A stretch of 63,812 nt of DNA, the filler included, from Hausera hauseri (lineage: Eukaryota), in the NCBI GenBank assembly GCA_046269625.1. It is 11 parts of 11 records of this genome, joined end to end, with 100 filler letters (N's around TTAATTAATTAA, not from the genome) between each part and the next. Parts side by side here need not be neighbours in the genome. Positions count along the whole stretch, not along the records: positions 1 to 12,138 come from JBJURY010048885.1; 10 more parts are not named here. One strand, given 5' to 3'. The translations under genes were made by a program, and so were the position numbers. Below, piece by piece: positions 1-43,804 of this stretch (the first letter of the stretch is position 1; each line of letters opens with the position of its first letter). The notes below the pieces were generated by a model that worked only from the letters and a program-made list of their open reading frames with translations, did not search any database and had not been told where the DNA came from.

Positions 1-93
1 GATTTTTTGATTTTTTGATTCAGATTTTTGGGTAATTAAGAGATCCTAACAAAAGTACCTATTGTTAAGATAAATTAAATTCTATTTCAGCTA

Positions 94-1185
94 TTGTTAC
101 TTGCCCATGATACGAGTCCGATAAGAGAAATAGCCCGGACAATACTGGCTAAGGCAGCTGAGAATAAGAAAGGAAGAAACGAAACAGTAAGAATAACGTT
201 AAATGAAGGAAACCAAGACATGAGGGTCATTAGAATGAATGAAGCTGATGATATACAAACATTACGAGAAAAGATTGAAGAATTGGAACCGTTTTACAAG
301 GAAAAAGTATACGGATTAAGTTTCTATGGACGAACGTTATATACTTATGATAAGTTACTAAGAATTGGATGTAGAACTGAAAATTATAATCCAATTATAA
401 CAGACATACACCCCGATGCAAGAGCAGAAACAACGATAGATAACATAATGAGGGAACTGGAACCTCAAGAGGTCGAAGAGCAACTATTAGGTGATACACA
501 GGATGTTACGGGACGAACAGAAGCCCGAAGAAGAGGAAGGTCAAGAGGAACAAAAATAAGTGATATTCGAAACAGGAAGAATCGGAATGAAGAAATCGTG
601 CGACGTTTATTATTGGCAGGGACGGATACGACGCCAGAATCTATAGATATAGATCCATTGTTAAGAACTCTATTAGCCAAATTACACACGTCATTTGCAT
701 CGTTTGACATGCAAATGGCAATTTCTGACAAACTGTTTCAGACGTTACGTAACGGTATGTTAAAAATTAGTAGGCAATTTTATGAAAATATTGGCGAGGA
801 ACGAATCAATGAATTACACGAGCAAGACATACTAGAAAAGATATTTGCTACAGGAATCACACAAGAGAAAGTAGTAACGGCTACCGCTTACTTATTATAT
901 ACGGTAATCGTTATTAATTATCAGACACAAAATGTTGAGGAAATCGAGAGGAACATCAAGGTAACGGTGAAAGTTTTACGTGATACTTTGGGAAATTGGG
1001 TACAATGTAGAGGCAGATGGATACCAAGCCTAATGAATGGCAGACTAAGACCTGAGGGAGGATCATATGAAAGATCTATCATAACACAATCTAGTGCCAT
1101 TAGACAGGCTCTAGGTGGAATATCATTTATGGAAATATTACAATTATTATTAATAGCATCCATCTGTATGCCTAAAGCTATGGGA
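94..1185 (+). pseudogene. Retroelement polyprotein segment: ubiquitin-like domain (about 181-410), helical region, internal signal peptide
   Basis: ETVRITL...IQTLREKIEEL...LSFYGRTLYTYDKLLRIGC fits a beta-grasp/ubiquitin pattern; hydrophobic ILQLLLIASICMPKAMG directly precedes the glycoprotein. Confidence 0.6.
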
Positions 1186-3000
1186 ATAGTAGACTATGAT
1201 TGTTCGAAGCCCAAAGAAGGGCAGAAGTACTCATTAGTCTATCTAGAAAATGTCCGGAAGCCGATCCAGAACAACTTACTACGACTGGCGTTCACCTCTA
1301 TTGGGTATATTAAGAACAGAAGTTTATTAAAGTTAAAATTAAGAAAGGTTATGTGGAGAAATCGTTCTTTTTGTTTCACTCTGCATATTATTCGGGAAAT
1401 TCTGCCATTATTGAACCAACAACGCCTTTTGAACCAATAATAATATCACGAGTAGAGTGCCAAGATGCTTTTAAAATTGAAGTCATAACAATACAGAACG
1501 CCCAGATACAAGCAGTACGACGGAAGATAAAGTATACTCAAATCTTCCGAGTAGGAAGAATCGACAAAACGATAGAAGGCACTTGTAAAGAAGTAGATTA
1601 CAATGTCGGAGGTACCATCGCTCCAAGAACAGTAGATATCGAAAATTACCAAGTTCAATTAAAAGAGTACGAAAACTATTTGACTCACAGACTAAACTCA
1701 TGACGACAATGAGTGAATGCGAATGAGAGTGGTAAATGTGACACTGGAGAGTCAAAGATGACTTGGGAAATATCTTCAAACCGATGTCACTTGACTTTAT
1801 TAAAAGAAAGGAAATTCAATAAAACGGTAGGAGAGATAGATGAAAAAGAAACTACAACCTATAAGGAAGGAGTTAAAGAAGTGAAAATAACAAATGTTGC
1901 GACAGTCGTGTACTCAGAAAACCCGGAGGAAATGATGCGTTTTAAAATTATGGGACCAAGCAATAAATGTGACGAAGAAATGTCTAAGACCAACTATAAA
2001 GGGATATATCTCTCACCCAAGGAGGTAGCACAGACTAAGACAAAAGTGGATAAGAAAGATATTAAATTAACACAATATTTTGATAACAAGATCGACTTTT
2101 TAATTAATTACGTCAGAAAAGAAATTCGAAGTCTAGAGAGAAATAATATTAAATGAATGCAAGTTAAATTACGAAATAATTCGTAATAAGATGGCTTTAA
2201 TAATAACAAACCCAGATATGGTAGCACCAGTGATGCCATTCGGCGATGGAGTAATCGGAAGAGTGATGAGCGAAGTATTAATAACTATTGAATGTAAAAG
2301 GATAGAAGTGTCTATTAGAGAAACTAAAGAGTGCACTTCAGAATTACCGGTTATCTACAATTCGGAACCCCGTTACGTAATGCCAGTAACACGAATATTA
2401 CTAGACTCCAATGCAAAACCTACGAAACTGGATAATTGCACTTTTAATATGTCGCTAATGTTCAAATTGGATGATAAGTGTATCAAGATGCCGAAAAAAG
2501 AATTGCTGCCGAAACCTGAAACATTAACTTTGATCAATTTACAAAGAAATCAAAGGTTTGAACCACTCACGGGCATATCGCAAGGAGGAATTTACACACA
2601 ACAAAACTTGGAAGATTATCGAAGAATGTTATTGTTTTCTCAGCAAATACAACGTTTAATAACTGAATTAACAAGAAGGGTAATGTGGGACGGAGAAGGA
2701 TCACCACATTGGGAAAATCTGATGGGAAAGGATTATTTGAAGAAAGTAACAAGAAACGTAATGGAAAAGATGTGGGGAAAGTTTTTATATTTCGGCCAGG
2801 CGGCCTCTGGATTTTTAGAAATATACTTTATTATCAGTGCCTTACGAACTATATTTACTGCCCTCGGTAAAGCTTATGGAATCCATGCAGCAATTGGATG
2901 CTCATGGAAAATCCTCATAGCCATAATACCGGCAGTAGCCAGTTGCTTTTTAGCAAATCACCATGCGAAATGGAAAAGGAAAATACTTAAGGAAAAGAAT
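1186..3000 (+). pseudogene. env: Chuvirus (Jingchuvirales)-like envelope glycoprotein, split by a frameshift near 1248 and by stops
   Basis: Motifs IVDYDC..KYSL..LE.C; YFDNKIDF; NPDMVAP..G..GRVMSEVLITIEC..IEV..ET.EC.SELPV.Y...YVMPVTRILL; GGIYTQQNLEDYR; WGKFLYFGQAASG..TM..AYGIHAAIGCSW match the chuvirus G pattern as I recall it. Confidence 0.82.
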
Positions 3001-3363
3001 CACGATACTGAAAATAATTCACCGTATAGCACCTTAAATAATAGAGATGACTTAAATCCAAACCCTAAGAATGATAGATATATAAATCGAATTAAACGGT
3101 TTTCCTGGAAACCCCGAAGGCAGAAATATAAACAAAGACTAATTGCCGACTTACCGCAATTAGATCTCGCGAATGAATACCAAGGGCACGTATACATTGA
3201 TCAGCCTTTAGTAAATCCCTCTGCCCCTCAATATCTGAGACATAGTGGAATGTACCTCACATACCAAGTATTACAAATGAAACAGGCCTATGAAGAAGAT
3301 CCTGTATTACATAATCATGAACCTACGTGTAAAACAAACAATAAAGACAAAACCCAGTCTATT

Positions 3364-3700
3364 ATAAGACCGGAGATAGATATTAAAGTGAATGGATATC
3401 CATTAACCGCGCTAATAGATACAGGATCAATAACCACCATCATGGGACAAAGTCAATTACCTAAAGAGCTAATGAAGAAGTTGCGTAAGGCAAAGAAACC
3501 GCTGGTTAATATTGGAGCCTTTGGCACTAAAGAAATAAAAATGGTTCTCGATGCCATAATCAAGATATGCGACCAGACAATAAAACATGATTAGAATAGC
3601 CAAGAACCTAACCAATAAAATATTGATAGGATGTGACGTACTACAACAGTTAAGTGATGTATATATTAATGTTAAAACCGGTCAACTTAAAACGTTCAAT
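3364..3700 (+). pseudogene. Retroviral-type aspartic protease, in frame with the glycoprotein tail
   Basis: RPEIDIKVNGYPLTALIDTGS (Asp codon 3418-3420) lies inside ORF 2191..3594; ILIGCD motif follows after a frameshift. Confidence 0.9.
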
Positions 3701-4199
3701 AAAGATCGATATGGAGGATCAGTTTCAATAATCAAGGATGTCATAATTCCTCCTCGTTCGGAAATAATAGTATCTGGTAGAATAAAGAATAAATCACTGG
3801 CGAATTGCATGCACTTCGAACCCTTTCCTCAAGTGATGAAAAAACACGACATCCTAGTCGCTCCACAAGTGGATAGAATAAGACAAGGAAGAATTTATTT
3901 GAGGATCTGTAACGCTGGAACGAAAAAAAAAACGATTAAGAAAAAATACTTGACTTGGAAAGATAACAACAATTGAAGAAACACCGAAGGAAGTGATCAA
4001 TTCAATCATCACAGATGTGGAGAAGATTGAGAAAATGATGGTAAAAAAATTAAAGAAAGAAGTAAACCAAAACTAGAGAGAAAAGAAAGCCGGCAACATC
4101 AATTGGGAAGAAAGATTAGGTGTTTGTAAGACCCTAATTAAGAAAGAGAAATATATGTTTATCCAACTGTTATAAAAGAATGATAACCGATTAGCGTGG

Positions 4200-5520
4200 A
4201 ATGATTATGACTTAGGGACGATGAATGCGATACAACACGTCATCAAATTAAAAGACGGACAAGAAAAGCCGATAAAGAAACGACCTTATAGACTAGCATA
4301 CGATAAAAAGGAAGAAGCACGAGAAATTATAAAATAAATGCGAGAAAAGAAAGTAATACGGCCCAGTTGTTCTCCTTGGACAGCACCAGTAGTGATGGTC
4401 AAGAAAAAGGATGGCACCATGAGATTCTGCATATATTATAGAGCATTGAACGAAATAACGGAGACCGATACATACCCATTGCCAAAGATTGAGGAAATAT
4501 TATATAAATTACATGGATCAACAATATTTACCACTATTGATATACAGAAAGGATATTGGCAGGTAGAAGTAAAAGAAGACAAACCGAAAACGGCTTTTTC
4601 AGTAGGTGCAGGATTATGGGAATTCAATATGATGCCGTTTGGATTAAAGAACGGGCCGCCAACTTTTCAAAGAGGAACACAATTACTACTTTTAGACGCA
4701 TCCCATGCTATTGTATATATCGATGACGTGATAGTAGCATCATCGAATTTTCAACAACATTTGAAGGATTTACAAGATCTATTCGACAGATGCGAAATAA
4801 TGGGTTTAAAATTAAATCTCAGGAAGTGCACACTTAATCAAACTGAAGTTGATTTTCTTGGACATCGAGTTGATAGGCATGGCGTCAGACCACAAAAAAG
4901 ACTACTAGGAAAAATCCAAGATTTTCCAAAGCCCACTACTGTTAAAGAATTGCGACGATTTCTCGGACTTGCGAATTATTGTAGAAAATTTATAAAGGAT
5001 TTTAGTAAAATAACTAAACCGCTTTACGAGCTATTATACGCAGACATAGAAAAGGTAATATGGACAAACGATTTCCAGAATCCGTTTGAAAATTTGAAAG
5101 AAAAATGATAAAACGCCCCTATCTTAATTTATTCGGACATGACTAAGCCATTTATATTAACAACAGATGCAAGTGACTATGGAGTAAGAGCAGTTCTATC
5201 ACAAAAAGAAAAGGATGGTGAGGAACATCCAATTGCATATGCATCAAGAAAATTAAATAAGCACCAGAAAAAGTATGCCGTTATCGAAAAAGAATTATTA
5301 GCAGTAATATTCGCATTAGATGTATTTTCACCTTATATCAGTGAGAAGAAACCTTTAGTAATATACACAAATCATCGACTGTTACAATGGCTGAAAATGC
5401 ATGAAAATCCCAACAGTAGATTATTACGATGACTTTAAAACTTCAGCCCTATACATTAGACTTTCAATATAAGCCTGGCACGCGAAATGCGAACGCTGAT
5501 TACTTATCGAGAATGCCGCA
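4200..5520 (+). pseudogene. pol: Reverse transcriptase and RNase H (Ty3/Gypsy)
   Basis: SPWTAPVVMVKKKDG, MPFGLKNGPPTFQR, YIDD, LTTDASDYGV, YASRKL, EKELLA, NADYLSR. Confidence 0.95.
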
Positions 5521-5789
5521 GGAACAAAAGGAACGAAAAAAGTAGTAGCAGCTGTATGAAGCATGGACGAATCCGTAGAAAAGATAAGAGAATCAAAGGG
5601 AAGATGAAGAAATAAAAATGATCAGAAATTATATTCAAAGTATAATTATACCAAAGAATAGAGAGCTAGCTCGTCATTTAGCCCCATTCAGTGAAGCTTA
5701 CAAATCAAAAAACGGATTTCTGTATTATATTCATCAGAATGGACTCGCACTAGTAATTCCAAAAAAATAGAGCAGTCTTACTAACCCAG

Positions 5790-6800
5790 TACCACGACGG
5801 ATTATTAGGCGGACACCAGTCAGTAAAAAAAACGATAAATAAGCTGAGAAGAAAATACTTTTGGTCAACCATGACAAAGGATGTTCAAGACTGGTGCGAT
5901 AGCTGCAAATTATGCGCTACCTGGAAGAATACCGGATCTAAGTTTAAAGCCCCTCTGAAAGTATGGGGCAATCCCCCGGTTCCATTTGAATTTACTGCAA
6001 TGGATACAACTGGACCATTACCACTAACTAGAAATGGAAATCGATACATTTTTGTATTTATAGACTATTTTACTCGATGGGTCGCAATCGCACGAAAAAT
6101 TTGTAGAAAATATTGTATTTAATTATGGAGCTCCAAGGATCCTATTAACAGACCAGGCGTCGAATTTAACCGGCAGTGTGATGCAAGCGATATACGAGAT
6201 TATGAGTATACTAAAGTTGCGGTCAACACCCGCTCATCCGGAAAATAATGGAATGGTGGAAAGATGCATCGGTGACTTGAAGAATAAGTTACAAATGGTC
6301 GTCGGTACTAGGCAAGATGATTGGGACGAATACATTAACACTTGTGTATTCGTAAATCGAACGTCAGTACATGAGGCCACAAAAAAGACTCCATTCTATT
6401 TGATGTATTTAAGAGATGCTAGACTACCCATTGACTTGGATTTCAACGTAAGGCCCACATCCCACTTAATGGAGGTGGAAAAATACAAACAACTAATGCA
6501 AGAGCGATTACAGTTAGCATATAAGATAGTAAAGGATAATCAAAAAGATTATAAGACAACTTATAAAAAGTATAATGACAAAAAAACTAACCAACTGACC
6601 ATTAAAGTAGGAGATTCGATCATGTTATATACTCCACTAAATAAAAAGGGAAAAACATCCAAATCGGATAGACCATATAAAGGACCATACGCAGTAGAAA
6701 AAGTAGATCTACCCAACGTTTGTCTCAAAAAAGATAATACTAATCTTAAAGTTCATGTTAACAGATGGAAACCCGCGCCTAAGGAGAGCGAATTAAGAAA
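5790..6800 (+). pseudogene. Integrase (HHCC zinc finger, DDE core, GPY motif)
   Basis: YHDGLLGGH...CDSCKLC; AMDTTGP; LTDQASN; NGMVERC; YKGPY...VHVNRWKP. Confidence 0.93.
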
Positions 6801-6859
6801 CAATGAACAAGAACTTATACGGGCCATCAACTATAAGAAGAGAGCTAAGAAAATTTCGA

Positions 6860-8180
6860 ATTACGATGTATTCAAATACTTCTGCCTATGGGTTCTAATA
6901 AGCATGCCAGGCCTGTGAGCTTAGACAATAAAACCACTTGACCCATGGATGAGAACATTCCCTTCAAACGAAACCTTAGAAAATAGCCTAATGATGAGTA
7001 TTTATCATGAGATAACTTATACAAGAAAAAAAGCAAAAATGTATAAGATTTATAGTATTCGAAAGATTACCCAATCAGTACATGATAGGAATCCAAGTAA
7101 TCCACGAGCATGATCATGAGCGAAGCTCGAAGCAACGAAAGTATGATTGCGGCAATACTTATTGGAGGAACACGACGGAATGTATAGTAGACGATTCCGG
7201 CAATTATCTTGTATATTACACTCTGATCAAGAGACATAAGAATCGCTACCAATGGCAATATACCAAGTGCTGAGGTATTATACATGTCTCTAATAGACGA
7301 ATAATTAACACAACCAGATTAGGCGAAATAATACTGACCCAACTTACCATTAAGCCGATAGGATTTAAAAGAAGACGAAGTTGTATAGAAATTAGAACAA
7401 TGATAGAGCTAGAAGAAAATAGAGCTATAAGTATAAGGCTCACGGAGGTAAAAAAGAAACAAAAGATGCCAACAAAATGTCGGCTGACTGACAGATACCT
7501 TCGAGTTTGCTGTAAAGTCGTACGAGAAAGAACCTACGGTGTACAAATTATGTTAATACGAAAGGATTCAGAGAATGTCAAGACTTTGACTTATCAAGGG
7601 CCTAGAACATGTTCCATTTAAAAATGTCGATGAGTATGACGACTACCAGCAACTAAGTGTCACGACACCTCTTGTGAGTCCTACACGACCTAATGAAATA
7701 AAGATTAATTTCGGAGAAATGGCTGTTCTTATGTGACCCCACGTTTTACCCTATCGTCACAAACGTTCAGTTTTAAAAAATGTCACAGTATCTTCCACAC
7801 TTACTTCCTTAGTTGTAGCTATCCCACCTGATTTACATTTCTATAAAATTAAACTTATCTGCAAGCTAGGTCAAAAGATAATAGGAAAAGGAATAATCAC
7901 ACCAGACGATACAATAGTGCCGTATGCCGACCTAAGTCCCAATACAAAATATACGGTTACATTACAACTATATGGCGACGATAATACGATGATTGCAACT
8001 AAATCGTTAACAGCTTCGACGAGAGCCCGAATACAGCAAAAACCAGAAAATGGGAAAATAAGTACAAGCTCAAACCAAAAGATACAACCACCAAAAGCAA
8101 GTTATACTTATTCTCGAATAGAATTAATCATAATAACGGTAGCATGTCCTATAAATTTGTTAATTGTACTGACACGATAA
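6860..8180 (+). pseudogene. Degenerate post-integrase membrane protein with furin site, FN3-like domain and TM helix
   Basis: Hydrophobic FKYFCLWVLISMPG at the integrase end; RHKR at 7755-7766 in frame with LKNVTVSSTLTSLVV...LSPNTKYTVTL and a C-terminal IELIIITVACPINLLIVL. Confidence 0.5.
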
Positions 8181-8383
8181 AAATAATCATTTATGTACGA
8201 AAACATCAGAGATCAAATTGGATTAGGATAGATATGCGACATATACCGAATATCCTAGATACCAATAATCCAAGTTAATGGTGGCTGTTTCGGATTGTAG
8301 CTGCAATCCGAATAGTTAAGATAACTAAACGCCATCTAGTTATCTACGCATTAAATAAAAGTAAAACCACAACGATTACCAAT

Positions 8384-9682
8384 ATGTGCATGATAACCGT
8401 TGTGTTGAAAATAAGTATTCTGTACATACCGATAGTGACGTTATTTCATATAGTCTCCGCTTCAACATTCAACCAAATCCAGTCTATTACAAGATCCAAA
8501 TATTGGTATAATAACGCCAAGAACCACATTATTAACGCCAGTTCAGCCAATCAATACTATGTGACCCATAACGATTATACAATCAGTTTAAATTATCCAC
8601 AAACTCAGCAGATACCCAATAATTTAAAAGGGTACAGCATGGCGAACAGATCTTTGGCGATACTTTAGATGACAAAGGCAACCTCATTATATCATACTGA
8701 CATTATTCTCCTCCCTGATAAATATTACTCATTAAACATTTACTGTATAGTTGGACAGTTCCATATTAAAACTACAGCCAGACAAACCTCAATAAAAGGA
8801 GATCTTATCAATATGAATCCAGAGCATGGATTAGCATTCAATTATTCGTTTATTCAAAACAATACCATAAAGATACGATCTCTTACTAATCAAATAATAA
8901 TGGCAATCGAGGTCATTAGGAACAAAAAGTTTCAACCTAGAGTGCCCAATGGAAAATGTTTTGATCTTCCCGAACCCGATTGTGTCAAAAATAAAACTAT
9001 ATCTTATCGACAAATACAGCAGATTACCGATACTGACCTGGTCATAGCCGCTGTTAATTTAGCCTATTACCATAGGAATCAACTCCAGCCTATCGAGATA
9101 TCTATTATAACTCCCTCTGGAAACACCTTATTCTACACGATCGTCTACCCCAGACAGCGTATCAATAATTTTGATAGCCATATAACTGGCCTAACGGAAG
9201 CAAACATCAGCAATCAGATGGACCCTACAGAAATAATCACGGACAAGATAGTCATTGGAACCGATGTAATTGAATTGATAATAAATCACTTTAGGTGCCC
9301 CATCAGACGGATAGCCGGAGTTCGTAATATTTTATATCACGAAGAGGTTATTCGAAAATACCAGCTATCAATCAATACATACAAAGAACTTGCGAAGAAG
9401 TTCTACGATTCAAAAGGATTCCCTTTACGAAGTACTGCCTTGGTACAATGCTACCAGGCCATCTATTGACAATCAAAATGGAACGATGAATTAATCCTAG
9501 AAGATGCGGCACCCGATAGTGTGCGAAAAGCACAGATAACATCAACATGTGGACGAAAAAGAAAGCTCCAAGTCGACGAAACCGTGATTATAGACGATGA
9601 AATATATGAACCAGAATCTATCCGTTATAAATCCAGATCATCAGATAAAGTTATTCATGTACCATTGCCTTTCGATCAATGA
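8384..9682 (+). pseudogene. Accessory ORF ending in a degenerate DEDDh (REX/ISG20-like) exonuclease fold
   Basis: 8384..8668 and 8669..9469 share a frame, separated by one TAG; IEISIITPSGNTLFYTIVYPRQRINNFDSHITGLTEANI and KIVIG resemble the REX-family core, but the DxE motif is replaced by AAVNL. Confidence 0.5.
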
Positions 9683-9717
9683 CAAATTTGGGACAACTTC
9701 TTCAGTCCCCCATGAAT

Positions 9718-10528
9718 TGTGCAGATGTCGATTGACTTAATTTCCCATTTCTCGAATTAGCAAACTAATTTAGCAAATGTCGATTGACTTAATTTCCCAT
9801 TTCTCGAATTAGCAAACTAATTTTACAAATGTCGATTGACTTAATTTCCCATTTCTCGAATTAGCAAACTAATTTAGCAGCTGTCAACTAATAAATGTTA
9901 ACAATAAACGTAAACCAGTGTGGTAATAAAGACTAGGAACTATTCCTTTCGGTAACATGTGATTTCAATATGGTATTGTGTGAATTTTTATTCGAATATT
10001 GTAATATATTTTTTGGTTGCTGTTATTTATTATTGGATATGTGTAAACATAAAATAGTATATATACAACAGTGTTTGAGCATTGATCATGAATTTGTTAA
10101 CCTGTCTCTTCTCAGATGACTACACGTAAGTGTCATTCTTTTGTGGCTGATTGTTAACATCTTTGTTTACGATGCATTTTGTATTTAGGCGTATTTTTTG
10201 TATAGTTGAAGAGTTCATTTTTATTCTACACGTAAATAATTTGAATAACTAAGTAAAGCTGCTAAGTAAAATCAGAGATTCGTCGTCCAGGTTAACCCGG
10301 CCTGACGACAGCCAGTTTAAAATAAGTAATCCCATAAGATATTAAACCGTAATAAATAAGTAAAATATAGATCACTGTCCCCTACACATTACCGACATAT
10401 AAGTAGGTAAAGTAGTAAGACTCATTATCTGCTATCCTTACGTCCGAACGCATAACTACGTCATTTGTTCTCCTCGTTAGCCAATTTACAGTGAAGCCTC
10501 TCCCATTGTGGTTAAGGAGGACTGAACA
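9718..10528 (+). repeat. Putative LTR (single copy in this contig)
   Basis: Non-coding stretch between the last ORF and the PBS, bounded by TGT...ACA; contains AATAAA; 5' boundary uncertain. Confidence 0.55.
9725..9880. repeat. 52-bp tandem repeat, 3 near-identical copies
   Basis: ATGTCGATTGACTTAATTTCCCATTTCTCGAATTAGCAAACTAATT... starts at 9725, 9777 and 9829. Confidence 0.97.
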
Positions 10529-10531
10529 AAC

Positions 10532-10549
10532 TGGTGCCGTTACTTGGGA
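10532..10549 (+). promoter_or_regulatory. Primer binding site, tRNA-His-like
   Basis: TGGTGCCGTTACTTGGGA lies 3 nt after ...GAACA and resembles the complement of the tRNA-His 3' end (TGGTGCCGTGAC...); it is just upstream of gag. Confidence 0.75.
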
Positions 10550-10652
10550 TAACTAGGCAAGAAACCTTTAGATAAGCATCTAGGCTACTAAAATTACGAC
10601 CAGAAGAGGAACACCGTATAGAGTAGAGACAGAAGACAACTTACCCTTTGGA

Positions 10653-12127
10653 TTGGAATTCTTAAACAACTTAAGTGAAGAAGAAGAAAACGGAATGGCC
10701 CAGAATGAGCATAACGTAGAACAGGTGATACAGTCGAAGGCCGACTTCACCTTACCCATGAAGAAGTTTTCAGGGAAAGAGGACGTACAAGATTTTATTA
10801 TGGAATACGAGGTATATTTAAAGAGTTTTGGATGGAATGACCAGCAAAGGATGGAAAGGTTACCTCTCCATATTAAAGAAACTGCATTAACGATTTACTT
10901 CCAAATGCCAGAAGAAGACAAAAAGGATTGGAAAACTGTCAAAGATAAGTTGCTTAAAAAGTTTTTAGTTGATCCCTCTGGAAAAGGAAAATAGAATAGT
11001 TTATAAGAAGAAGGCAGCAAAAAGATGAGACAGTCTAGGATTTTATTTGCGCATTGGAAAAGTTAGCCACAAGGGCTTACCCTGATGCAGTAATAAGAAG
11101 TAACGCACTGTTGGCTCAATTCCAATATGAGTTAGAAGGAAAGTTAAGAAGTATAATATTACAAGCTGACCCACCTACATTTCAAAAGGCAATAAGGAAA
11201 GCACAAAAAGCCGAACAGGACACCGAACTATATCGGTGGACAAAATCAAGAAATGATAATGGTAATTACGATAAACGATCGAATAATAGTACACAAAAGT
11301 ATTAGCGGTATAATAGAAACCGAAGCACTTCACAAACATCAGCTACAGAATCTGAGTCAGACATGAAAGAAAGTGAGGTTCAAATTAAAGAACGATAAAG
11401 AAAAGTCAAACTATGAAAAAGGGTCTACAAAAGATAGAAGGGCACTACCAAATATAGATTCGGAAGGAAGCTTAAAGTGTTTTAACTGTAATAAGTATGG
11501 CCACATAGCAAGGGCATGTAGGTCACACAAAAGAGAGTCCACAAAGTCAATAAAGGATTATACATCAGCTACGTCGGATTAATCATCCGATAAAGAACAT
11601 GAAACAGAAGATAGTGAAGAAGAAACAAAGAAAAAAGATAAAAAGAAAGAAAGTGTAAATTATGTTAATGAGATACTATCCCAACATATGAAAAAGAAGC
11701 TAGCTATAGAATTAAAAAACTATAAAATTCAACAGAAACGATTAAAAGAAAATAGTATTTATGCAACGGAAGAAAAGCCAAAAGGAGGAAAAGTACGACA
11801 AGGAAGAAAGAAGGGTAATAAAAAGATAACAGAAGAGGTGGAAAGCAGAGAAACTTCTGTGGAGAAAACCGATTTAGAACAAAAAAAAGGAGACGAAAGA
11901 AAATTGAATCTGGCAAGTCGACGTCGGAAGAAAGTAAAGGAAACGTGCTACCTACAAAAATTTTCGATGAAACCGTTATTGAACAAGTAATACATGATAT
12001 AGAAGTAGACTTAGATGCCGAGGATGATCTTATCCAAGCAGTGATTGCTATAGACCCCGAAAATATAATAGATGTGATTCAAGCGACAAGCACAATACTA
12101 CAATTAATAGACAATAAAGTGTTTTAG
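10653..12127 (+). pseudogene. gag: Gag (capsid plus CCHC nucleocapsid) with a charged C-terminal extension
   Basis: KFSGKEDVQDFIMEYE...W..VKDKLLKKF capsid pattern; CFNCNKYGHIARAC zinc knuckle; interrupted by stops and frameshifts. Confidence 0.9.
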
Positions 12128-12138
12128 TTTTTTAACAT

Positions 12139-12238
12139 NNNNNNNNNNNNNNNNNNNNNNNNNNNNNNNNNNNNNNNNNNNNTTAATTAATTAANNNNNN
12201 NNNNNNNNNNNNNNNNNNNNNNNNNNNNNNNNNNNNNN
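12139..12238. other. Artificial contig linker
   Basis: 44N-TTAATTAATTAA-44N, with stops in all six frames. Confidence 0.99.
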
Positions 12239-12825: not shown

Positions 12826-15800
12826 CTATTCTGTTGATGTAGGAGGCGTGACCCTCACATCTCCAAGAGACAGATCTACTAAAAACTGAACAATGGGCAT
12901 TAGAAAATCCTTGTCCGAGTCCGGCTCACCAGGCAGCCAACTTGTAATATAGAAGGATTTGTTTGTAATATCCGTTCCACGTTTACCTTTTGTTGGCTGT
13001 ACCCTGGTGATTTTCTCCGAGTACTCGGTGACTTTACCGTCCATGTACCAGACATGTTTAAAGGTGCAACCAACCACTTGTGTTGGATCGGCAATAATTC
13101 TCTTTAAGAAATCCATACCCGCATCATCTAAATTTTTGAACATATCAAGTTCATCAACATGCTGACGATGAATAACCGCATTAGTCAGTGTTCTCTCTGA
13201 CTTCTTCCGAGAGGTGTCGTCCTCCTTTTGAGCACGTTCCATCTGACGCCTCTGGATTTCCTCATGCAGATGAACAGTTTTCGCTTCATTAACATCGCGC
13301 ACATCTCTAGCACGCGTAGTGGCGAACGAAATGAGGTTTCGTTGTTCATCTTTGGGGAAAGCTTCCAACCATTCAAGGACTTTGTTAAAGGTGCCTTTTA
13401 CCTTGCCATCAATGAAGCCACATGTGGCGTTAGGTGCTCGCCGCCAGATGGCATCCATGGTGCCCAAAGCCCTTTCTGCCTGCATGTTATTGGCGGGAGC
13501 AGATGCAGTAGCCGCCAGCATTTCGTCGGATGGGTGCGCAAGATCACCATGGATTTGAGATTTCAGCTGATTACTTAGGACGTGGTGGATTGAAGTGGCT
13601 AACGCTTTAACAGTTGCTAACAACTGTTCCTCTAGCTCTGGCTGCACATTTCTAAGGGCCCGCACATCGTCGGACAGGTTTATAGGCGCTCCAAAAGCAT
13701 CCCCTGTACCATGTAAAATTATGGCCGCCTCGTGCTGCAGTTTGCTCACATACTCCAGGCCTCTTCTAATAAAGTCATTTAACTGAAGGTTGGATTTTTT
13801 CTCCGGATTTGCATAGAAAACACCCAGCCATGGCTCAGTCAGCACAATAGCAAACAGCCCAAGAGCTTGGAGCTGGACTTGTACAAGCTCTTGCTGTAAC
13901 CCGTCCCTGATGGGTTTCTTGAGCTTCGAATGAATGCCCGTTTTCAGGTATTCCATAAGATGTTCTCTATACAGGAAAATGGTGGCCGCGTTGTGAAACA
14001 AGGTATTAATCCTGTTTCCAACAACTTTTGGGAATAGTCCCATTTTGAGTTTTTTTTGCCTCAAAAAGTTCATAAACCCAAGTGGGTCACCTGTTTCCTT
14101 GTACCGCAGCTTCGATATTTTGTAAATAAGGTCAGCTGCGATACATTCTGTACCGGATAAATTTGGGCGCTGGAGGTTCCACTCATGATCAAGTTTGGTG
14201 AGGGTACTTTTAGCAGCACGAGCCACGCCATCTAGAGGATGTACTAAACAGTTCAGCTCAATTACATGCATGTCCAACTGTTCTCGCAGTTTTTCAACCA
14301 CACAGTGGTTTACAGGGGCTTTATCGGACATGGTACTCTTGATCTTATCCACAATTATTGTTCGAACGTCATCTACTGCCAGTTGAAAGGCATCTGAATA
14401 AATGCGGATAACATCGAGCAGAGCTTTAGAAATGTGCGCGTAATAGTCGGCAGTAGTTCCGCCGGGCAGCACATCTATACTAATTATAAACCTGTCAGAC
14501 TCTGTTTCGATGTGCACCTCATTAACATGGGAGCCTTTAAGAGTTGTTGCATCCCATGCTAATGTAGCCACTCCTGCCGTCCTATGTAATTCATAACCTA
14601 CTTTGATATCCGACAGAACGCCCAGTTCGTAGGACATATGGGAAACTATAGATTTGGTGGGAAATGCAGACAATTGTTTGTGAAACAAACACTCACCAAC
14701 ATATTTTATTACATCACAACAATTGGTAACGCTCACGTGACAAACTAAACATTTATATATACATTTCCTGAAATCACATCCGTAAGTCTTACCATTATCT
14801 TTCACTTCAATCGAACTAGCATTCATCTCATTCACCATCTCTTTCAAACTTTCAATTTTATTTTCCATCCAACTTGCACTCATACTTTCTCCTTTCTTCA
14901 ATTCATTCATTTCTGCTTCAAATTGTTTAGTCAGCTCTTGTGATTTCTTCCTCGCATCTGCTCTGAATTTTTTTTGTTTCTTTTGTAACTTTTGGATGCT
15001 TCTCTTTTTTTTTCTAATTGTTTATTTAAATTTTCTGATGTCATTTTAAGGTTCGAAATCTCTTGATTTTGTAGCCCAATGCAATTTTTTAATTCTGAGA
15101 TTATTTGTTTTAGTACCTGTACTTCGCTTTGTTTTACTTTGGCTGTTTGGTACATATCTTTCCATTTGTGTGCACTGTTTGATTTTGTTCTTATTATTTG
15201 TTGTTGACGCCTGCGCTCCACTGTATATATGTTTTCATTGAACAACCTCTTCTGTTCTCGCAACTTTTTTCGTAAAATTTCATTATTTTGTTTAACAGCC
15301 ATTATAGTTTTTAAATGTGACACACATTTTTCGCAGTTACGCCTCAGCTTCTTGGATGTTGTTGCCTCAAATAAAGTACTCAGCGGCTGTGGGGGAAGGG
15401 AAGCAGTGAATTGCGCAAAAGGAATTAAAAAATGGTCTGGCAGCAACTTCATAAGTGAAGGCCACTCACTACTTAAATTTTTTTTTTTCCGCCAGAAAAT
15501 CTTGAAAACGCCTAATAGCTGCCCCTAAGGCATGTACATTTATACAGCGATCCTTTTCGGTGGTTTCCACAACAGCTATAACTTGCTTCTGCACTTCACT
15601 TATGCTGTTGCCACCAGACAGCAACCTAGCTACATAACCATTTTTTACAGGGTAATCATTATTAAAAACATTTAAATACATGTCCAGATCGGCAACAGTT
15701 TTAGTCATCAAATGCTTTCCAGATCCTTCCTCCGCACAGCGATCTTCCTTTCTCGTCTTTCTTAGCGTCATCGGCCCTGAAGGTGGACGCGTTGAGGGAG

Positions 15801-16137
15801 ATTCAGATGCTGTGGGAGTTAAAACTGGCTGTTCAAACACAGAAAGATCGTAAACCTCATTGAACAAATTCGACAGCAAAGCCCACTTGGTTGTTAAATT
15901 GGGTCTGTACTTTTTCAGCTTGTCATGAAAACGTTCAATTGATCTTTGTAATGCAGTCTCATTAATGGACAGTGTATCATCTGTAGAAGCAACAATGGAT
16001 ACTATTTGCTCAAGCACTTCGCTTGCTTTAAAACCTTCAAAAAGCAGTCGGGCGACAAATCCCTTTTTAATAGGGTAGTCTGCAGAAAATGATGTTAAAT
16101 AATGTCTTAGGTCTGAGACTGTCTTTCTGGCTGCCAT
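12826..16137 (-). mobile_element. DDE transposase of about 1100 aa (hAT-superfamily-like, possibly hATw type), split into three ORFs by frameshifts
   Basis: LAWDATT (D1), TMSDKAPVN (D2), NCLVHPLD (CxxH), GNR, NNMQAERALG (E); breaks lie near A-runs at about 15480 and 14930-15010. Confidence 0.75.
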
Positions 16138-16258
16138 GTCAGATTACAGATTGCCTGTAGATGTAAATATATATACACACATATATACACCTATTAGTAT
16201 CGTGTTACAATAAATTAAACATGCACACACTGTAACAAATTAAGGCCGAGATAGAGGT

Positions 16259-17225: not shown

Positions 17226-17325
17226 NNNNNNNNNNNNNNNNNNNNNNNNNNNNNNNNNNNNNNNNNNNNTTAATTAATTAANNNNNNNNNNNNNNNNNNN
17301 NNNNNNNNNNNNNNNNNNNNNNNNN
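17226..17325. other. Artificial contig linker
   Basis: 44N-TTAATTAATTAA-44N. Confidence 0.99.
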
Positions 17326-17367
17326 ACTCGTAAGTTAATTAAGCATAACTTAATAGACGTTGAAAAC

Positions 17368-18380
17368 ATGGTTGAGAATCAAGCAGTAGCCCAGAGGCTA
17401 GATATTTTTACATTTGATTCTCTGAATCTACGGGCATACGACGGAGACCCGGATGGACTTAATGAATTTCTGAAAACCATTAAGCTGTACGCAGAAAGTG
17501 CTGGACTCGCATCTAATGTAACGATTAAACGTTTGTCGTTATATTTGAAGAATTTGGCCTCTGATGCCTACAGTGAACTCACCGATGATGAGAAGAAATC
17601 TTGGTCCTCCCTGGTAGGAGCCTTAAACCGAAAATTATTACCGACTAACTCCACAACAAAAACTCATGGCTTTTCAGAATGGAATGCAACAAAAGGGTGA
17701 ATCAATAACCCATTTTGCATGTGCCTTAAAGAAACTGGCAAAACAGTTATGTGAGTACCTTAAGAATAGCAAATATAGCCAAAGCTAAAAAACAAAACAG
17801 AACGTGAAGCCGCAGAGAAGGCAAACCCTCCCGATTTAGATGTATTTGGTCTAGAGACATAATAAAGCAGTTGATTTTAGCACATCCAGAGAACTTTGAC
17901 AGAACATTGCAATTAGCTCAAGGCTTAGAAATGGCACTGGACAGGTATGCCAGAAATAATGACACAAACGATAGAAACAATGATTGAAATAATCGTAATA
18001 ATAAAAATCATAATGATAGGCGATTTATAGAAACTATGGAAATAGAAATCAGAGCGGTAACAATGATTATAGAAGTAATCGGTATGGTAAACGAAATTTT
18101 GACAACGACCGAAATAGTCCATCTAGCAAATCAAACTATAGTACGGATAGGCGCTCAGGTGGCCTCAGAAATGTTAACAATGGGAACCGGCATAATGATA
18201 ATCAAAGCAACGATAACCTCAAAATGGGGACACTAGACAAGTCTCGTCGAGTTATAACAGAAATTCAAGTAGATCGAAGTATCCGGTAAATGAAGACGCT
18301 GACAAAGGGTCGGTAGTAACGGTAACCTAATTTGTTACACATATGGACAAGAAGGACACGTAGCGATGTCCTGTTCAAAC
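17368..18380 (+). pseudogene. gag: Gag with Asn/Arg-rich linker and degenerate zinc knuckle
   Basis: YDGDPDGLNEFLKTI...LYLKNLASDAY...SWSSLVGALNRK; CYTYGQEGHVAMSC at about 18330-18375. Confidence 0.8.
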
Positions 18381-21300
18381 TCACTAAGTGTTTCGTTTGT
18401 GGAACCTAGCAAAACTAATATGATTAAGAATGAAAACTTAGAAGCAATTTATGACATCCGTAAAGACACGGGTATGATTATTGAGATACAAGATTTTCGA
18501 CGTTTTTTGAAGACTCAGCCTGATACTAATAATCCAAAAGTTGTGATGGTCAGGAATGAGTATGAGCACAAGTTACGATTGCTAGAAGTGTATCATGGCC
18601 TTAAAGGCCAGAAACTGAATACGAACGTTCAATTGCGCCACCAACGCTTGCTGACATGGTTTGTTGATTATAAGTCGTAGAAAAAGAAATCCAACAATAG
18701 TAACAATTTTTTGTATTTTGTTTCAAATTCCAAAAAAAACTACCAATACTGTAATTTAATCAATTCTTGTACCATGTCTATCATGTAATAAATAATATCA
18801 CAAAGATATCTATATTTTACACTAGCTTTTAGTAGAGAAGTGACGTAGATTTAAATGTGAGCCGAACTGAACTGTCTGTTAAAAAGGAACATTGTAGATG
18901 TGCGAAGCGATGTAACCATTTATTGAAACGACGTTGTAAATAGAATGATGGAAAGTTTATATGGTTTTGGAGCAGTTTGATGATTCAACAAATGATAGTC
19001 CTTCAACGTTTGATTTCATAGACGATTTGATAAACGATTTGAAAAATGATCCTGAACGAGTCACGTGTGGGAGAGATTGCAATTTCCACTGAATGAGAGA
19101 AATTGGATATGTTTTCGGAAACTGGAGATTGACGACCAGTATTCTAGTGAGAAAACGAGCTGCTTCCGCGACCGTGACAGCACACACATGGCACGTAAAA
19201 AGAATTTTCCTGCGACTTATAAAGAAGCATAGAAAGCAGAAAAATTTGAAACCTCAAATAAAGTAGACTTGGACGCGGAACCCGAATATATGGTAAAAAA
19301 AGTAAACAAAAACTATAGAAATTGACGAAGAAAAAGAATTTATGGAATCGCTAATACTAAAAATTACCAAGAATAGAGGCCGCAGCCCATCATTAAAGCG
19401 GAAACGTAAGGATTGTTTGCGATCTCCGATGACTAAGGAAAAGTCAGACGGAGCAAAAAAAACTGAAATCGCTCTAGGAAGTTATGCAGAGTTCATTTTG
19501 AGCACCCAGGAAACTAGTGTAACTACGCCTGTCGAAGTAGAAGAATTAGCAAAATCTGGAAATGAAATAAATGATATATGTCCATTGCCTACTATTGAAG
19601 AAGAGACAGAAGAAGCTGAGAAATTCGATCATAAATAGTGGAAAATCAGACGTTCTGGGAAATTTACTGATGAATTAAAGCGAATAAGGATTAATTGCCT
19701 CAACCCAGACGTATTGCAACAGAATCTGGAGAAACTTAAAGAAATGAGCAAACAAATGGATATTTCCGGTAAAGAACAACAGTTTATAGAAAGGCTATAA
19801 AGAAAAATGAAGTTATGTAGTGAAGGGAAGTTAAGCGAAGCAATCGACCTGGACCAGCCGGAAGAAGTGTCAACAGAAACATTGGTAAAATGGGAACATG
19901 AATTAGAAACGTAGATAAAAGTGGAGTAAGACTCCCAGCGGCATGGGACAAAACTACCCAGGGCGTTGAAGCAAAATCAACCAAGCCCAGTCGTTGGTTG
20001 CCACATTAGAAGCTAATCCGAAATTAAAAAGTGTAACACATAACTTAGAGCGCATCATGAGTAAAATTAAATTTAAAATAGTTGAGCGACTCAAAGAGAA
20101 ATCGGTCAAGGAACAAAACGAAATTGATCTAAAAATATTAGGCATAGATTCCGTAGATATTCCGTCCTTAATGCAAATGATAAAAATTGCTTCCACCGCT
20201 TCTACAAGCCTGGAGAATCCCATTAAGATTGAAACCGAAAAAAGATCGCAAATATGCAGTCTGAGGAATAGAATTATGCAAACAAACAGTGATGAAACAC
20301 AGAAAATAATTACAGCCTGTATCCTCGAATTTGATGAGTATAAGGATAAATTCAACTGCGCATATCAGATCATTGGCTTTATTAAAGGCCCGGATGATGA
20401 ATTAGAAAATGCTCGCAAAATGTTAGAAAAAGCAATACTGGTAAAGCCAAATATCGATAATCAATTAAGTGAATGGTCCAAAGTCATAACACGACTAAGT
20501 AAACTAGTGCAGAGCCACATAAAAGAATTTCCAGAAAGCGAGCATACAGTGAGAAAACAATTAAAACAGAATCTCAGAAATCTTGACACAATGAAAGCGG
20601 AAATAGATATCAGGACCCAATTCGACGCATTACGCCGGCTAAACTTTATAAACGAAAAATAAAAAATAACGATACCAGTGGACATATATAAGATGATTAA
20701 AGAAACGAACTTTACAAAAAAGCGGAACATGACTTGCAACTCTTACTCGAGATTGAGAAATGTCCGTTTAGAAGGAATCCAACATTTGACAGCCGAACCT
20801 ATCGAGATCTCAATTCGTGATCTCAGAACCTTGGACCTTTGCCCGGAACATCGGTCAAATGTAGAAGAAACAATGAAATTCTTGCACAACCCACAAGAAT
20901 GGATGATAGGAACGGATAAAATATGTCATACCGAACTGATAAAAATAAGAAACGACCACCACCTCAGCTTCGAAGAAGCCAAGTTTGTGAAGAAATGCTA
21001 TAGACCCGGACTCAAAATTATCAACGATCTGTACGAGTTAGCGCTACTAATGGTGGAAATGGCAGAAATCAGTGATGAGAAAATAAGGTAATTGCTACCC
21101 CAAATACGGCAAGTCGAAGAAACTTGCTTTATGACCGAACAAAGCGAGGTAAGATTAGACGAAGTGACTAAGGAGCTTAAAGTTTATTAAAATAAGTATG
21201 CTCTTACAGAAGTAGAGAAGGCCGATAAGTCACTTTTCGTGCAGAGCTAACTAAGTATCAAGAAAAAGGATCGATTTCAGCCGAATAATTATGCTAGTTG

Positions 21301-21756
21301 CTAAAAGTATTACGCCAAACTTCCGGAAATGGACGATGTTCACGAACCACTCAAATGATTATAATGCAACAAAAACTGCGCGAAATGAGAGAATCATTTA
21401 AAGACGTAAACGAGGCACAACCACTAGAGATGCTGGAAATTGATTTCGGACTGCCCGAAAATAAAAGTGAATGGGATGCGTATCTAAATGCAGTAGTCGC
21501 CGAGAATCCTAAAACCTTCGTACATTTGTACGAAACGGAGACTTGTGCACCGGATCAGAGATTCAGTGTGGGAATGCTGCTAGACTCAGCACAAACGTAA
21601 AAAGATTTAATTAAGTTAATTAAAGTAAACCTTACCGAAAATCCGCTAAGATAGTTAGTTCCCACCCTAACCAAACTATGAAGCGAAGGTGCGATTTACG
21701 ATGCTGTGCCAAAACTTTTAATAAAAGAGTACGCTAAAATCTTAAAAACAAAGCCA

Positions 21757-21990
21757 GAAGAGACGATTAAAATAAGAATAACGTCCGACGGGATGGACGA
21801 TAAGGAACACGAGTTCACTACGAGTTCTCTTGTGAGAGATGTAGTACTATGGTTAAGGAGTAATGGTTATGCGAATGAACCGAACTGTAGACTCTATTTT
21901 AGAGGAAGAATATTAGATGAATTGGAGAGATTAATAGACGTTGGAATCAATTTATGTGAAACCAACCGGATGGTAGTAACGGTCGCTACG
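21757..21990 (+). pseudogene. Ubiquitin-like domain
   Basis: ETIKIRIT...VRDVV...CRLYFRGRILDELERLIDVGI resembles ubiquitin [21 protein letters not shown]. Confidence 0.65.
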
Positions 21991-22752
21991 ACCGAAACCA
22001 AAGAGGAAACTACAAGAAGGGCTAAAATGTATCACTGTGTAGGACGAATAGTAGGAGTTCAAGATGCAGCGATGTACTTCGAGTATTTGCAAACGGACGA
22101 AGACAAAGAACAATATGATAAGAATTTAGTACCACTCAGTGAGCGCGTTGGTCGTAGCGAAACCGAAGCCTTCCGTCGGTAGACGGCGAAAATCCAAGAA
22201 GAAATTAATCATAGCGGAGACTTAATTACAGGATTGAGGAAAATGTCCATATCGAACTTCAGTGCAGATAACGAAGAGCTGAATGAACTCATGAAAAATT
22301 TGATACGCATAGTAAATCACTCTAGTCTCTGTGGTGATATATTAGACGAGAAAGAGAAATCTATATTCAATGCAGCCAGGATCATGAAAAATTTCCGTTG
22401 TAAATACTCGAAAGGAACCTTAAGCGATGAAATGGTGATCGAGAAAATTATGGTAGAGAACACTATAGAGGAAATGAGAAAAGTATTGCTATATTTGGTC
22501 ATTAAAACAAATCCGACCCGAGGAAGCGAAACTGACAAAGCCACTGGTCTAGCGCAGAAGACCGCCAGGAAACTACCCCAAGAAATAGACTGGTCTAAAC
22601 TTTTTGAAAAGGAAGAGGAACATCGAAATAGAGCTTTCCCTAACCGACTTGAAGACATGATACGAAACTTAACCGGAAATAATCGAGTAAATGACTCAAA
22701 CTGGTTAATCAAATTTGTAACCGTAATGATGTTGATAAGACAATTGGGAGCA

Positions 22753-23737
22753 GTTACAATATATGACTGCGACAAATTCACGTTTGGCCAAAAATATTCA
22801 TTGATTGATTTAGAAATGTGCGAATACGCGAGACCACAAAAACTGAAGACAAAAGTGAAGAATTATGTGCTGTATCAACAACGCGAATTAATCGCACTGT
22901 AACGGTGCAGAATACGATACTGTAAAAGGGTTAGAGTCGAACGTAGTGGTTGCGCATTTCTACAAAACCGAAATGCGCCCACGAAAAGTGATGTTTCATA
23001 GTGTTACTAAACTCTACACGGAAAACCAGAAGTGTCACATCCAGAGCGGCACTTGTTCCAACCAAAACTGGTTGCAATTTTATTAGAATTAAAGAACTTA
23101 AGTTTAATGAAACGACAGGGAAACTTTATATAGGTAGAGGATATAGCCGAACAACCTATACCTACCATATTAATCTCCGATGCTCATAAATTAAAGTTTG
23201 TTAAGAAAGATATACTCACAAGATGTGATGTAATAATGTATACCACTAACTATGAAGCGTTCTTTGTAGCTGAGTCTGAGATAGATGCCAAGACGTTCCA
23301 GCTGAAGACTCAAGGTATTCGAATTGAGGATTATTTGAAGAACAGGGACGATTACTTCTACTATAAAGGACAGGCTGGAATAGCTGAATTATTATACAAG
23401 ATGAAAACGAATGACTGCAAGTTAGACTTAGAAGTCATAAGAACCAAATTGGCCTTAATTTATGCCAATCCCGAACTGGCATCACCAATAATTTTAATGA
23501 AAGAAGACGTTTTTTGCCGGGTGACCGGAGAAGTTTTACTGACCTAGGAATGTGAGAAAAGGGATGTACCCATTAATGTGGAAAAGAAGAGGTGTATACA
23601 AGAGCTTCCAGTGATATATTAAGACGTACCAATATTAGTAACACCAATTACTAAAGTATTGTTGGCAAATTCTACTCAACCTACAATTTTGTGAGACTGC
23701 AAGACCAGTCTAGGCGAACCAATGTTCCAACGGAGCG
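22753..23737 (+). pseudogene. env: Chuvirus-like glycoprotein (N-terminal part, decayed, cut by the contig end)
   Basis: Signal LIKFVTVMMLIRQLGA then VTIYDCDKFTFGQKYSLIDLEMC; LALIYANPELASP...CRVTGEVLLT*ECE...CIQELPVIY...VTPITKVLL. Confidence 0.8.
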
Positions 23738-27700: not shown

Positions 27701-27828
27701 CTAAAGCATTTCATCATAATACTGTGTCAATTTTCAGGCTCATGGATTTGAGACAAGCATTCTTTGTAAAGTTTGCACATCCCAAAATCAACCAATTATT
27801 TGAGGAGCACAATTAAAAAACTCATCAT
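24704..27828 (-). pseudogene. Polinton protein-primed family B DNA polymerase, 3'-truncated
   Basis: NNDNMC...HYVWI (vOTU-like), DHCHFTGEYRGAACNNCNL (EndoVII-like), FHNLSAYDSHF, FIDS, KGVFPYDY, YLDANNLYGWA; one frame with stops from 27828 to 25108. Confidence 0.92.
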
Positions 27829-28263
27829 TCGTTGAAGTGATTTTAAAAATATTGAAAAATATAGCCATATCACTATGTACTGCCCCGTTTATTGATCGGT
27901 TTAATGTTCTTTTGTTTTAATGCATGGATTAAATTATATATATTGTGGCGCCAAATTTAAGTTTCTCGACCATGTGGATTCGAATGGCGTCATTAGATTC
28001 TTCGCATAATGCATGCTTGACCGAATATTCAAGTTCGAATAGCTAATTATTCGACTCCGAAGCTCGAATTCAAATATCTAACATCATATTCCGATTCGCA
28101 ATATATGATTTCCTATCCATGCCCGCTTATAAATTTTTTGATTTCCGCTTCACTGGGCTTTATATGCACATTTTTCTTAATTCGAAATATTGATTTGGCA
28201 TCGATATAGTACATTTTCATGGAATAATTTTCACGTATGAGGGGGTTGTCATATATGAAGAAT

Positions 28264-28789: not shown

Positions 28790-29705
28790 TTATCTTAAAC
28801 CACTGCCAGCACCCGTGAGAAACAGGACCATAACAGAAAAAAATGTGCCTCTTTAATGAGCCGACATGTCCCTAAACATGAAGAAGACGACTTAAACCAC
28901 TCGCAGCACCCTTGAGAAACACGACCTTAACAGAAAAAATGTGTCCTTTTAAAGGTCGACATGTCCCTAAACATGAAGATGACGACTTAAACCACCAACG
29001 TCACCTCGAGAAACACGACCTTAACTGAAAAAAATGTGCCCTTTTAATTATGCGACATGGCCCTAAACATGAAGATGACGACCTACACCACTGCTAGCAC
29101 TCTTGAGAAACACGACCATAACAGAAAAAATGTGCCCCTTTAAATTTCCGACATGTCCCTAAACATGAAGGACACGACTTAAATCACCATCAGCCCCCTT
29201 GAAAAACACGACCTTAACAGAAAAAATGTTTCCCTTTAATGATCCGACATGTCCCTAAACATAAAGAACACGATTTAAACCACTGCCAGCACCCTTAAGA
29301 AACACGACCTTAATAGAAACAATGTGCCCCTTTAATGATCCGACATGTCCCTAAACATGAAAGACACGAATTAAATCACCATCAGCCCCCCTGAGAAACA
29401 CGACCTTAACAGAAAAAATGTTTCCCATTAATGATCCGACATGTCCCTAAACATGAAGAACACGACTTAAACCACTGCCAGCACCCTTAAGAAACACGAC
29501 CTTAACAGAATAAATGTGCCCCTTTAATGATCCGACATGACCCTAAACATGAAGAAGACGCTTAAATCACAATCATCACCCTTGAGAAATACGACCTTAA
29601 GAGAAAAAGTGTGTCCCTTTAATGATCCAATATATCTCTAAACATGAAAACGACGACTTAAACCACTGCTAGCCCCCTTGAGAAACACGACCTTAACAGA
29701 AAATA
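28790..29705. repeat. 96-bp tandem satellite, about 9.5 copies
   Basis: ACATGTCCCTAAACATGAAG (with variants) recurs at 28864, 28959, 29055, 29151, 29247, 29343, 29439, 29535. Confidence 0.96.
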
Positions 29706-35751: not shown

Positions 35752-36029
35752 AGAACTATATATGAGGCGCTGCATTAAGTGGATGATCGTTCGGCATGTG
35801 TCGAATGTAAGTGCTGTTGTGTTGTCTCATTTTTTTTTGTTTTGCTGCCTCTATTTTGCATGCCTGACCACTTCTACCGACTAATTCCTGATTTTCTTAC
35901 TGATAAAACAGTTGCTCTTAGTGCTACTCTTGAAGCGAAATAGGATTTTTTTGTTGTTTTTTTTCTTTTTTAGATTCTTGTTGACATATAACATATACGT
36001 GCACATACTTCCCCGAACGATTTTCGATA

Positions 36030-43190: not shown

Positions 43191-43804
43191 TCCTTGAGGT
43201 GATTTTGGAAATAATGAACAATATTACCATATCACCATGTACTGCCTCGCTTATTGATTAGTTTTAATGCACTTTTGTTTTAATGCATCAATTAAATTAA
43301 ATACCTGGCGGTGCCATGAGAAATCAAATGGCATCATTAGATTCTTCGAATAATGCATGCTTGATCGAATATTCGAGTTAGAATAGCTAAGTATTCGACT
43401 TGTAATCTCGAATTCGAATATCTGGTGCCATATTCCAGTTCAACATACATGACTTCTTATCCCGCCCCGCTATTACATTTATTGATTTCCGCTTTACTGG
43501 GCTTTAAATACACATTTTGCTTCATTCAAAATATTGATTTTGTATCGATATAGATCATTTTCATGCAATAGCTTTAATGCATATGGGGGTGTTCATATAT
43601 CAGGAATCGATTATCGCTGTTAGGCTTTTCGAATAGTTCGAACTTCGATATTTGAGCTCGAAATTATTCGATTTTCGAATATCTGACTTGAGATTCGAGA
43701 TAGCCATACTCGACTTCCTATCTATCCCCGCTAATTATAACATCGAATTTTGAGTGCTAGGGGCAAATAAAACGTATGGGAAGTCTGCATCAGTTGCACT
43801 TTGT

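Follow-up and report, generated by a model that had tools for sequence, protein, structure and literature searches.

A predicted ubiquitin-like domain between Gag and Env in compact Ty3/gypsy-type elements of Hausera hauseri

Two retroelements of Hausera hauseri carry, at the same place upstream of env, a short segment for which a sequence-only reading had proposed a ubiquitin-like domain (Ubl; hereafter copy 1 in element 1 and copy 2 in element 2) with a role in ESCRT recruitment, in processing or as a decoy. We asked whether this segment is ubiquitin-like and what it would do in the element. The window, i.e. the whole stretch of DNA that was analysed (63,812 nucleotides), consists of 11 contigs with N44-TTAATTAATTAA-N44 linkers between them, which give 10 gaps (e.g. 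12139-12238 and 17226-17325). Adjacency across these gaps is artificial and, since element 1 and element 2 are on separate N-joined contigs, they are not neighbours in the genome. Both element copies are broken by stops and frameshifts. Their features are listed in Table 1.

Table 1. Positions in the window of the features assigned to the two elements, with the evidence for each.
Feature	Positions	Strand	Evidence
Element 1: helical stretch before the Ubl, within the Gag-to-Ubl region	79..180	+	Aligns with P0001 429-460; 10/34 identical
Element 1: ubiquitin-like domain (predicted; without Gly-Gly)	181..408	+	34% identity to P0001 454-533; profiles, ESM Atlas
Element 1: Bcl-2-like helical domain (predicted)	583..1026	+	Pfam Bcl-2 E 0.0028 and 0.00045, below the curated cut-off
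Element 1: internal hydrophobic signal/anchor before the env ectodomain (predicted)	1126..1194	+	Highest hydropathy window upstream of env
Element 1: env, gB/Monjiviricetes-type fusion glycoprotein; split over several frames	1195..3045	+	PF24664 on three pieces, best E 2.7e-51; 43% to P0001
Element 1: pol, gypsy order protease/RT/RNase H/integrase; broken	3367..6915	+	Pfam RVP, RVT_1, RT_RNaseH, Integrase_H2C2, rve
Element 1: non-coding LTR-like stretch (inferred)	9700..10550	+	Sequence; short tandem repeat 9715-9885; primer-site-like TGG motif at 10532 near the end
Element 1 family: gag (capsid, one zinc knuckle, charged spacer); broken	10584..12127	+	46-52% to P0001 19-182
Element 2: gag; broken	17326..18677	+	37-48% to P0001 21-129; translations
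Element 2: ubiquitin/SUMO-like domain (predicted; without Gly-Gly)	21757..21990	+	Pfam Rad60-SLD_2 E 0.016-0.026, below the cut-off; ESM Atlas
Element 2: helical domain at the Bcl-2-like position	22240..22620	+	Aligns with P0002 and copy 1
Element 2: hydrophobic signal and env ectodomain; broken, ends at the contig end	22705..23737	+	Hydropathy; PF24664 E 3.4e-6; tblastn to P0001 and L001

A search of 1.84 billion representatives gave 2 matches, with P0001 as the sole strong relative. In P0001 capsid, zinc knuckle, Ubl, Bcl-2-like domain and Env are in a single 1130-aa frame, with 33-36% identity to copy 1 in an alignment of about 440 aa; P0001 has one zf-CCHC match, with about 240 residues from the zinc knuckle to the Ubl, and no Pfam match to MATH, BIR, ankyrin or SMC was found in it, continuous as it is from Gag to env. 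L001 came from a metagenome motif scan in which one of three loci was usable. It consists of one uninterrupted frame of 2509 aa that begins with a Ubl-like segment, followed by a helical domain and env and, further on, by three proteases, RT and RNase H. The three retropepsin domains of this open frame (2-7528) are between env and RT, and its RT-RNase H is 49% identical to that of element 1.

Element 1 (piece 1 of the window, 1-12138) has the order Ubl, Bcl-2-like domain, env, protease, RT, RNase H, integrase, extra frames, LTR-like stretch and gag, hence all its genes and one LTR-like stretch are within 12,138 bases; a second LTR copy was not found in this contig. The gag-to-env order of element 2 (17326-23737) is the same as in the element 1 family. 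In run X1, 16,947 contigs map on piece 1, and several of them continue from its gag end (about 12,020-12,125) with the sequence immediately 5′ of the Ubl, i.e. in other copies the gag of the element 1 family precedes the Ubl. Because of these joints, and because the gag matches the P0001 N-terminus, we considered that piece 1 belongs to a large family of gag-Ubl-Bcl-2-like-env-pol elements, of which it is a copy in permuted or tandem form. The env is thus between gag and pol: gag comes before env in P0001, in element 2 and in the X1 joints, and env comes before pol in element 1, where the PF24664 match is directly 5′ of the protease, and in L001.

Further frames follow the integrase of element 1 (7274-7621 and 8279-9469; accessory genes, no Pfam match). 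Between them, a small domain followed by a hydrophobic stretch (7737-8177) has a counterpart in L001 (about 4700-5500, between two proteases in the polyprotein), with a BLASTP E of 0.001 and 18/82 identical residues; this small domain is presumably fibronectin-III-like. On other contigs of the window we observed a leishmanolysin (M8) metalloprotease frame (35985-38057; intron-free, 690 codons, on its own contig, Pfam E 4e-94) with a signal, a Thr/Ser-rich stalk and a C-terminal anchor; three related broken elements on the minus strand (24717-28263, 39380-43607 and 61480-63761) that encode protein-primed DNA polymerase B and endonuclease VII domains, two of these elements being 74% alike over 3.6 kb; a transposase-like frame (731 aa) with upstream frames at 12826-16143 on the minus strand, with no convincing Pfam match; and a tandem array at 28794-29728 with a unit of about 96 bases.

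The peptides quoted in the sequence-only reading are present at 316-372 in copy 1 (frame 79-1437) and at 21889-21948 in copy 2 (frame 21682-22179), each after the quoted helix and strand. Its estimate of about 250 codons to the env signal was also close, with 238 (copy 1) and 237 (copy 2) codons between the domain and the hydrophobic stretch before env. The same reading had called the domain conserved in both elements; of this, the equal position and the separate likeness of each lineage to Ubl families stand, and the link between the two copies rests on them, whereas the direct alignment is marginal. Precisely, BLASTP of copy 1 against copy 2 gave E 34 for the Ubl stretch, and HHalign a probability of 3% with E 0.014. 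Leave-one-out profiles recovered the other copy at E about 0.6-0.7 (46,121-residue set), from 1 to 93 of 2000 shuffles reached the true score in eight tests, and 3 of the 246 non-self segments of the window scored as high as the true pair. A significant pairwise alignment of the two segments, suggested as a check, was hence not clearly obtained.

We consider it likely that the segment is a ubiquitin-like domain. In fact, three divergent lineages, each separately, point weakly to ubiquitin-like families by sequence comparison, with four sequences in total and all the scores below the curated or usual cut-off. Copy 1 alone had no Pfam or NCBIfam match to the Ubl segment, and against PDB sequences it gave one row, which was no Ubl. 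P0001 matched Pfam ubiquitin with E 0.031, and a profile of copy 1 and P0001 searched against PDB sequences gave nine rows, of which the first four were RAD23A (E 0.031-0.24). In ESM Atlas, copy 1 gave named matches at 0.88-0.89, to be read as leads only, and unnamed clusters that equal those of copy 2 in length and size; for copy 2 the top match was a Rad60-SLD cluster (0.92; family on 51% of the members) with 156 shared features, below the 170 that are typical of same-family matches. FUBI was in 2 of the 6 rows obtained with L001 alone (E 1.2-1.4). When copy 1, copy 2 and L001 were combined in one profile (A5), the first 12 of 19 rows from PDB sequences were ubiquitin-type by name, the best being ubiquilin 3 (E 0.012) and the UHRF1 UBL (E 0.03), and the profile of all four sequences (A4) gave ubiquilin, RAD23A or ISG15 in 6/6 rows.

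AlphaFold was run on one sequence and on four sequences, and both models (mean pLDDT 59 and 61, respectively) have, at low confidence, a strand-strand-helix-strand start, a helix after the central strand and a last strand that is unresolved. The ubiquitin-like call is likely right on the several weak and separate profile signals; the two models are of too low a quality to reveal a beta-grasp. The marginal pairwise scores, the low-confidence models and the profile matches, all under the cut-off, would also be expected if the segment were not a beta-grasp, or if two unrelated small alpha/beta domains resembled a Ubl by chance. We consider this improbable, as separate lineages and separate methods give the same superfamily at the same polyprotein place, where HHpred is also reported to give PF11976 in the planarian element Burro (PMC6431247).

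Immediately upstream of the env signal there is the Bcl-2-like domain (583-1026 in the window, 651-748 in P0001 and 36-98 in P0002), with a Trp-x-Gly-x-Trp-type motif at its end. The element 1 domain has 63/148 residues identical to P0001. The best of the Bcl-2-like matches was that of P0002 (Pfam Bcl-2 E 7.7e-5), still below the cut-off, and the helical domain of element 2 had no Pfam Bcl-2 match.

As the sequence-only reading had stated, a C-terminal Gly-Gly is missing: within 60 residues after the conserved Gly it is absent in 4/4 sequences. For this reason neither conjugation of the Ubl nor its cleavage by ubiquitin hydrolases would be expected, and the processing role suggested for it is unlikely. 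More precisely, a Ubl that is inside a polyprotein and upstream of a domain needing release could serve as a processing signal for the ubiquitin hydrolases of the host, and ubiquitin insertions in cytopathic pestiviruses are a described precedent (PMC8310069). Such a role, drawn by analogy, is however largely refuted and we give it hardly any credit: besides the missing Gly-Gly, element 1 has its own protease and L001 has three, the Ubl sequence is far from ubiquitin, and the sequences examined gave no evidence of cleavage by ubiquitin hydrolases.

The position that matches ubiquitin Ile44, which we take to be the reference residue of the hydrophobic receptor surface, is S, Y, H and T in the four sequences (register from the A5 profile alignment). 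Since it is not kept, it weighs against mimicry of the usual ubiquitin-receptor surface, and with it the proposed recruitment of ESCRT found no support. A Ubl that mimics attached ubiquitin and recruits ESCRT for budding would agree with the inference that env-bearing elements have to bud; moreover, the four scanned stretches 5′ of env have no PT/SAP, PPxY or YPxL motif, so that a different route is conceivable. We nevertheless consider it very improbable, given the variable Ile44-equivalent and an ordinary candidate in element 1, i.e. the PSAP motif at 3217 in the env cytoplasmic tail, although this motif is absent from L001.

The Ubl region remained translated and under constraint during the spread of the family. 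Differences among X1 copies were considered over 118-432, where 40 of the 65 listed rows were examined: 31/40 were at third codon positions and 28/40 were synonymous (12 were not), against an expected fraction of 0.285 (P 7e-8). As this codon test had no control region, it shows coding and not a special constraint on the Ubl. Between copy 1 and P0001 the identical residues are 26/76 in the Ubl, 20/58 in the linker behind it, 63/148 in the Bcl-2-like domain and 20/43 at the start of env, hence the Ubl is conserved no more than the linker and less than the Bcl-2-like domain and the start of env. Across lineages the Ubls are only 15-37% identical.

The setting of the domain, inside a Gag-Ubl-Bcl-2-like-Env polyprotein, was absent from the sequence-only reading. 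We considered as the probable role that of an integral, non-conjugated Ubl which, within this polyprotein of a GAG-ENV-POL Ty3/gypsy element, would be a module that binds proteins on the cytosolic side. Observed directly were the order of the domains, their single frame in the relatives, the lack of Gly-Gly and the coding constraint among copies. The decoy role of the initial proposal, as a binding module, may hold. In such a mechanism the internal hydrophobic stretch before env would route env into the ER, and the element protease would free the piece with the Ubl and the Bcl-2-like domain from Gag. After signal-peptidase cleavage both domains would stay cytosolic and be tethered to the membrane by the hydrophobic stretch. 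Cellular Bcl-2 proteins with a tail anchor are likewise on the cytosolic side and membrane-tethered. The Ubl would then dock this accessory piece on the host ubiquitin/SUMO machinery, setting its turnover or location.

This last part, a host-facing Ubl that couples the accessory piece to the host ubiquitin/SUMO machinery, may hold and we propose it tentatively; the nearest named sequences to the Ubl are the proteasome-shuttle UBLs of RAD23 and ubiquilin, the UHRF1 UBL and Rad60 SUMO-like domains. The Ubl could otherwise face the element, as an adaptor or folding unit that binds the Gag/RNA particle of the element or gives order to the junction between Gag and Env, by analogy with the coronavirus nsp3 Ubl1, which binds the viral N protein (PMC9938351, PMC8769549). 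Its place between zinc knuckle and env signal, in one frame, agrees with this, and co-evolution with a partner encoded by the element would be in line with the fast divergence and the variability of the Ile44-equivalent. On the other hand, the Ubl travels with the Bcl-2-like domain and, in Burro, also with MATH and BIR, all host-pathway modules (PMC6431247), and most env-bearing gypsy elements are described without a Ubl (in the main text of PMC13524379 "ubiquitin" and "SUMO", as well as "Bcl" and "Burro", have 0 matches). We consider the element-facing role unlikely and, as our best guess, ranked the module binding host machinery ahead of it.

A wider reading is that Ubl, Bcl-2-like domain and membrane anchor form an accessory unit of ancient origin that GAG-ENV-POL retrotransposons have kept across the lineage, far beyond the giant planarian Burro. 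The envelope leader would in this way supply a membrane-anchored, death-blocking protein with level or location steered by a built-in ubiquitin/SUMO-like tag. We regard this as speculative and rather doubtful.

Among known systems, integral UBLs of RAD23, ubiquilin and UHRF1 and Rad60-type SUMO-like domains are similar in that they have no terminal Gly-Gly and are embedded in a larger protein; the element Ubl differs from them in its scores below the cut-off, in the Ile44-equivalent that is not kept and in that no UBA or other partner domain was detected. As for the coronavirus nsp3 Ubl1 and the pestivirus ubiquitin insertions, a predicted Ubl is inside a viral-type polyprotein, but in the pestiviruses the insert is genuine ubiquitin, which host hydrolases cleave, whereas the element Ubl is without Gly-Gly (PMC8310069), and with coronavirus nsp3 the likeness is by description only, no sequence link having been seen.

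GAG-ENV-POL errantiviruses with an HSV/gB-type env have been described in nematodes, bryozoans and flatworms (Chary and Hayashi 2026, PMC13524379). The present elements have the same gypsy order of protease, RT, RNase H and integrase, a gB-type env, many copies and a similar size; unlike in that work, the copies here are broken.

The closest layout is that of Burro/GYPSM1 of planarians (Arkhipova and Yushenova 2019, PMC6431247), in which Gag, a Ubi2/SUMO-like domain (PF11976, by HHpred), a BCL2-like domain and a mononegavirus-like env are in frame, followed by protease, RT, RNase H and integrase. The Ubl is indeed not a standard LTR-retrotransposon domain, as the initial reading had remarked, but it was hence already published at the same place. 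Burro/GYPSM1 are giant gypsy-like LTR retrotransposons of Dugesiidae hosts, with an internal region up to 25 kb, an ORF1 of about 4900-5100 aa, two or three zinc knuckles, MATH, BIR, ankyrin or SMC cargo and a dUTPase-like domain between protease and RT (PMC6431247). As in Burro/GYPSM1, Ubl, Bcl-2-like domain and env follow Gag in frame (P0001; copy 1), with both domain scores below the cut-off. Element 1 is instead about 12 kb, and P0001 has one zinc knuckle and is without MATH, BIR, ankyrin and SMC matches. Between protease and RT, element 1 has a 130-aa frame (3584-3973) that is 29% identical to L001, with no Pfam or NCBIfam match. In element 2 the Gag-to-Ubl region is much longer than in P0001; long coiled-coil and helical frames are found there (19306-21597, between gag and Ubl), which may correspond to the SMC-like cargo of Burro.

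The Ubl-Bcl-2-like-env layout is therefore already published (PMC6431247), and what is new is that this cassette is also found in elements which are compact (~12 kb) and without the other cargo of Burro. The authors of that work put forward, as an idea only, an interference of the element with apoptosis and ubiquitination of the host (PMC6431247). We consider the compact elements as smaller relatives of the published layout rather than as a new kind of system; of the Burro cargo, Ubl and Bcl-2-like domain are what they retain in the absence of the remaining modules.
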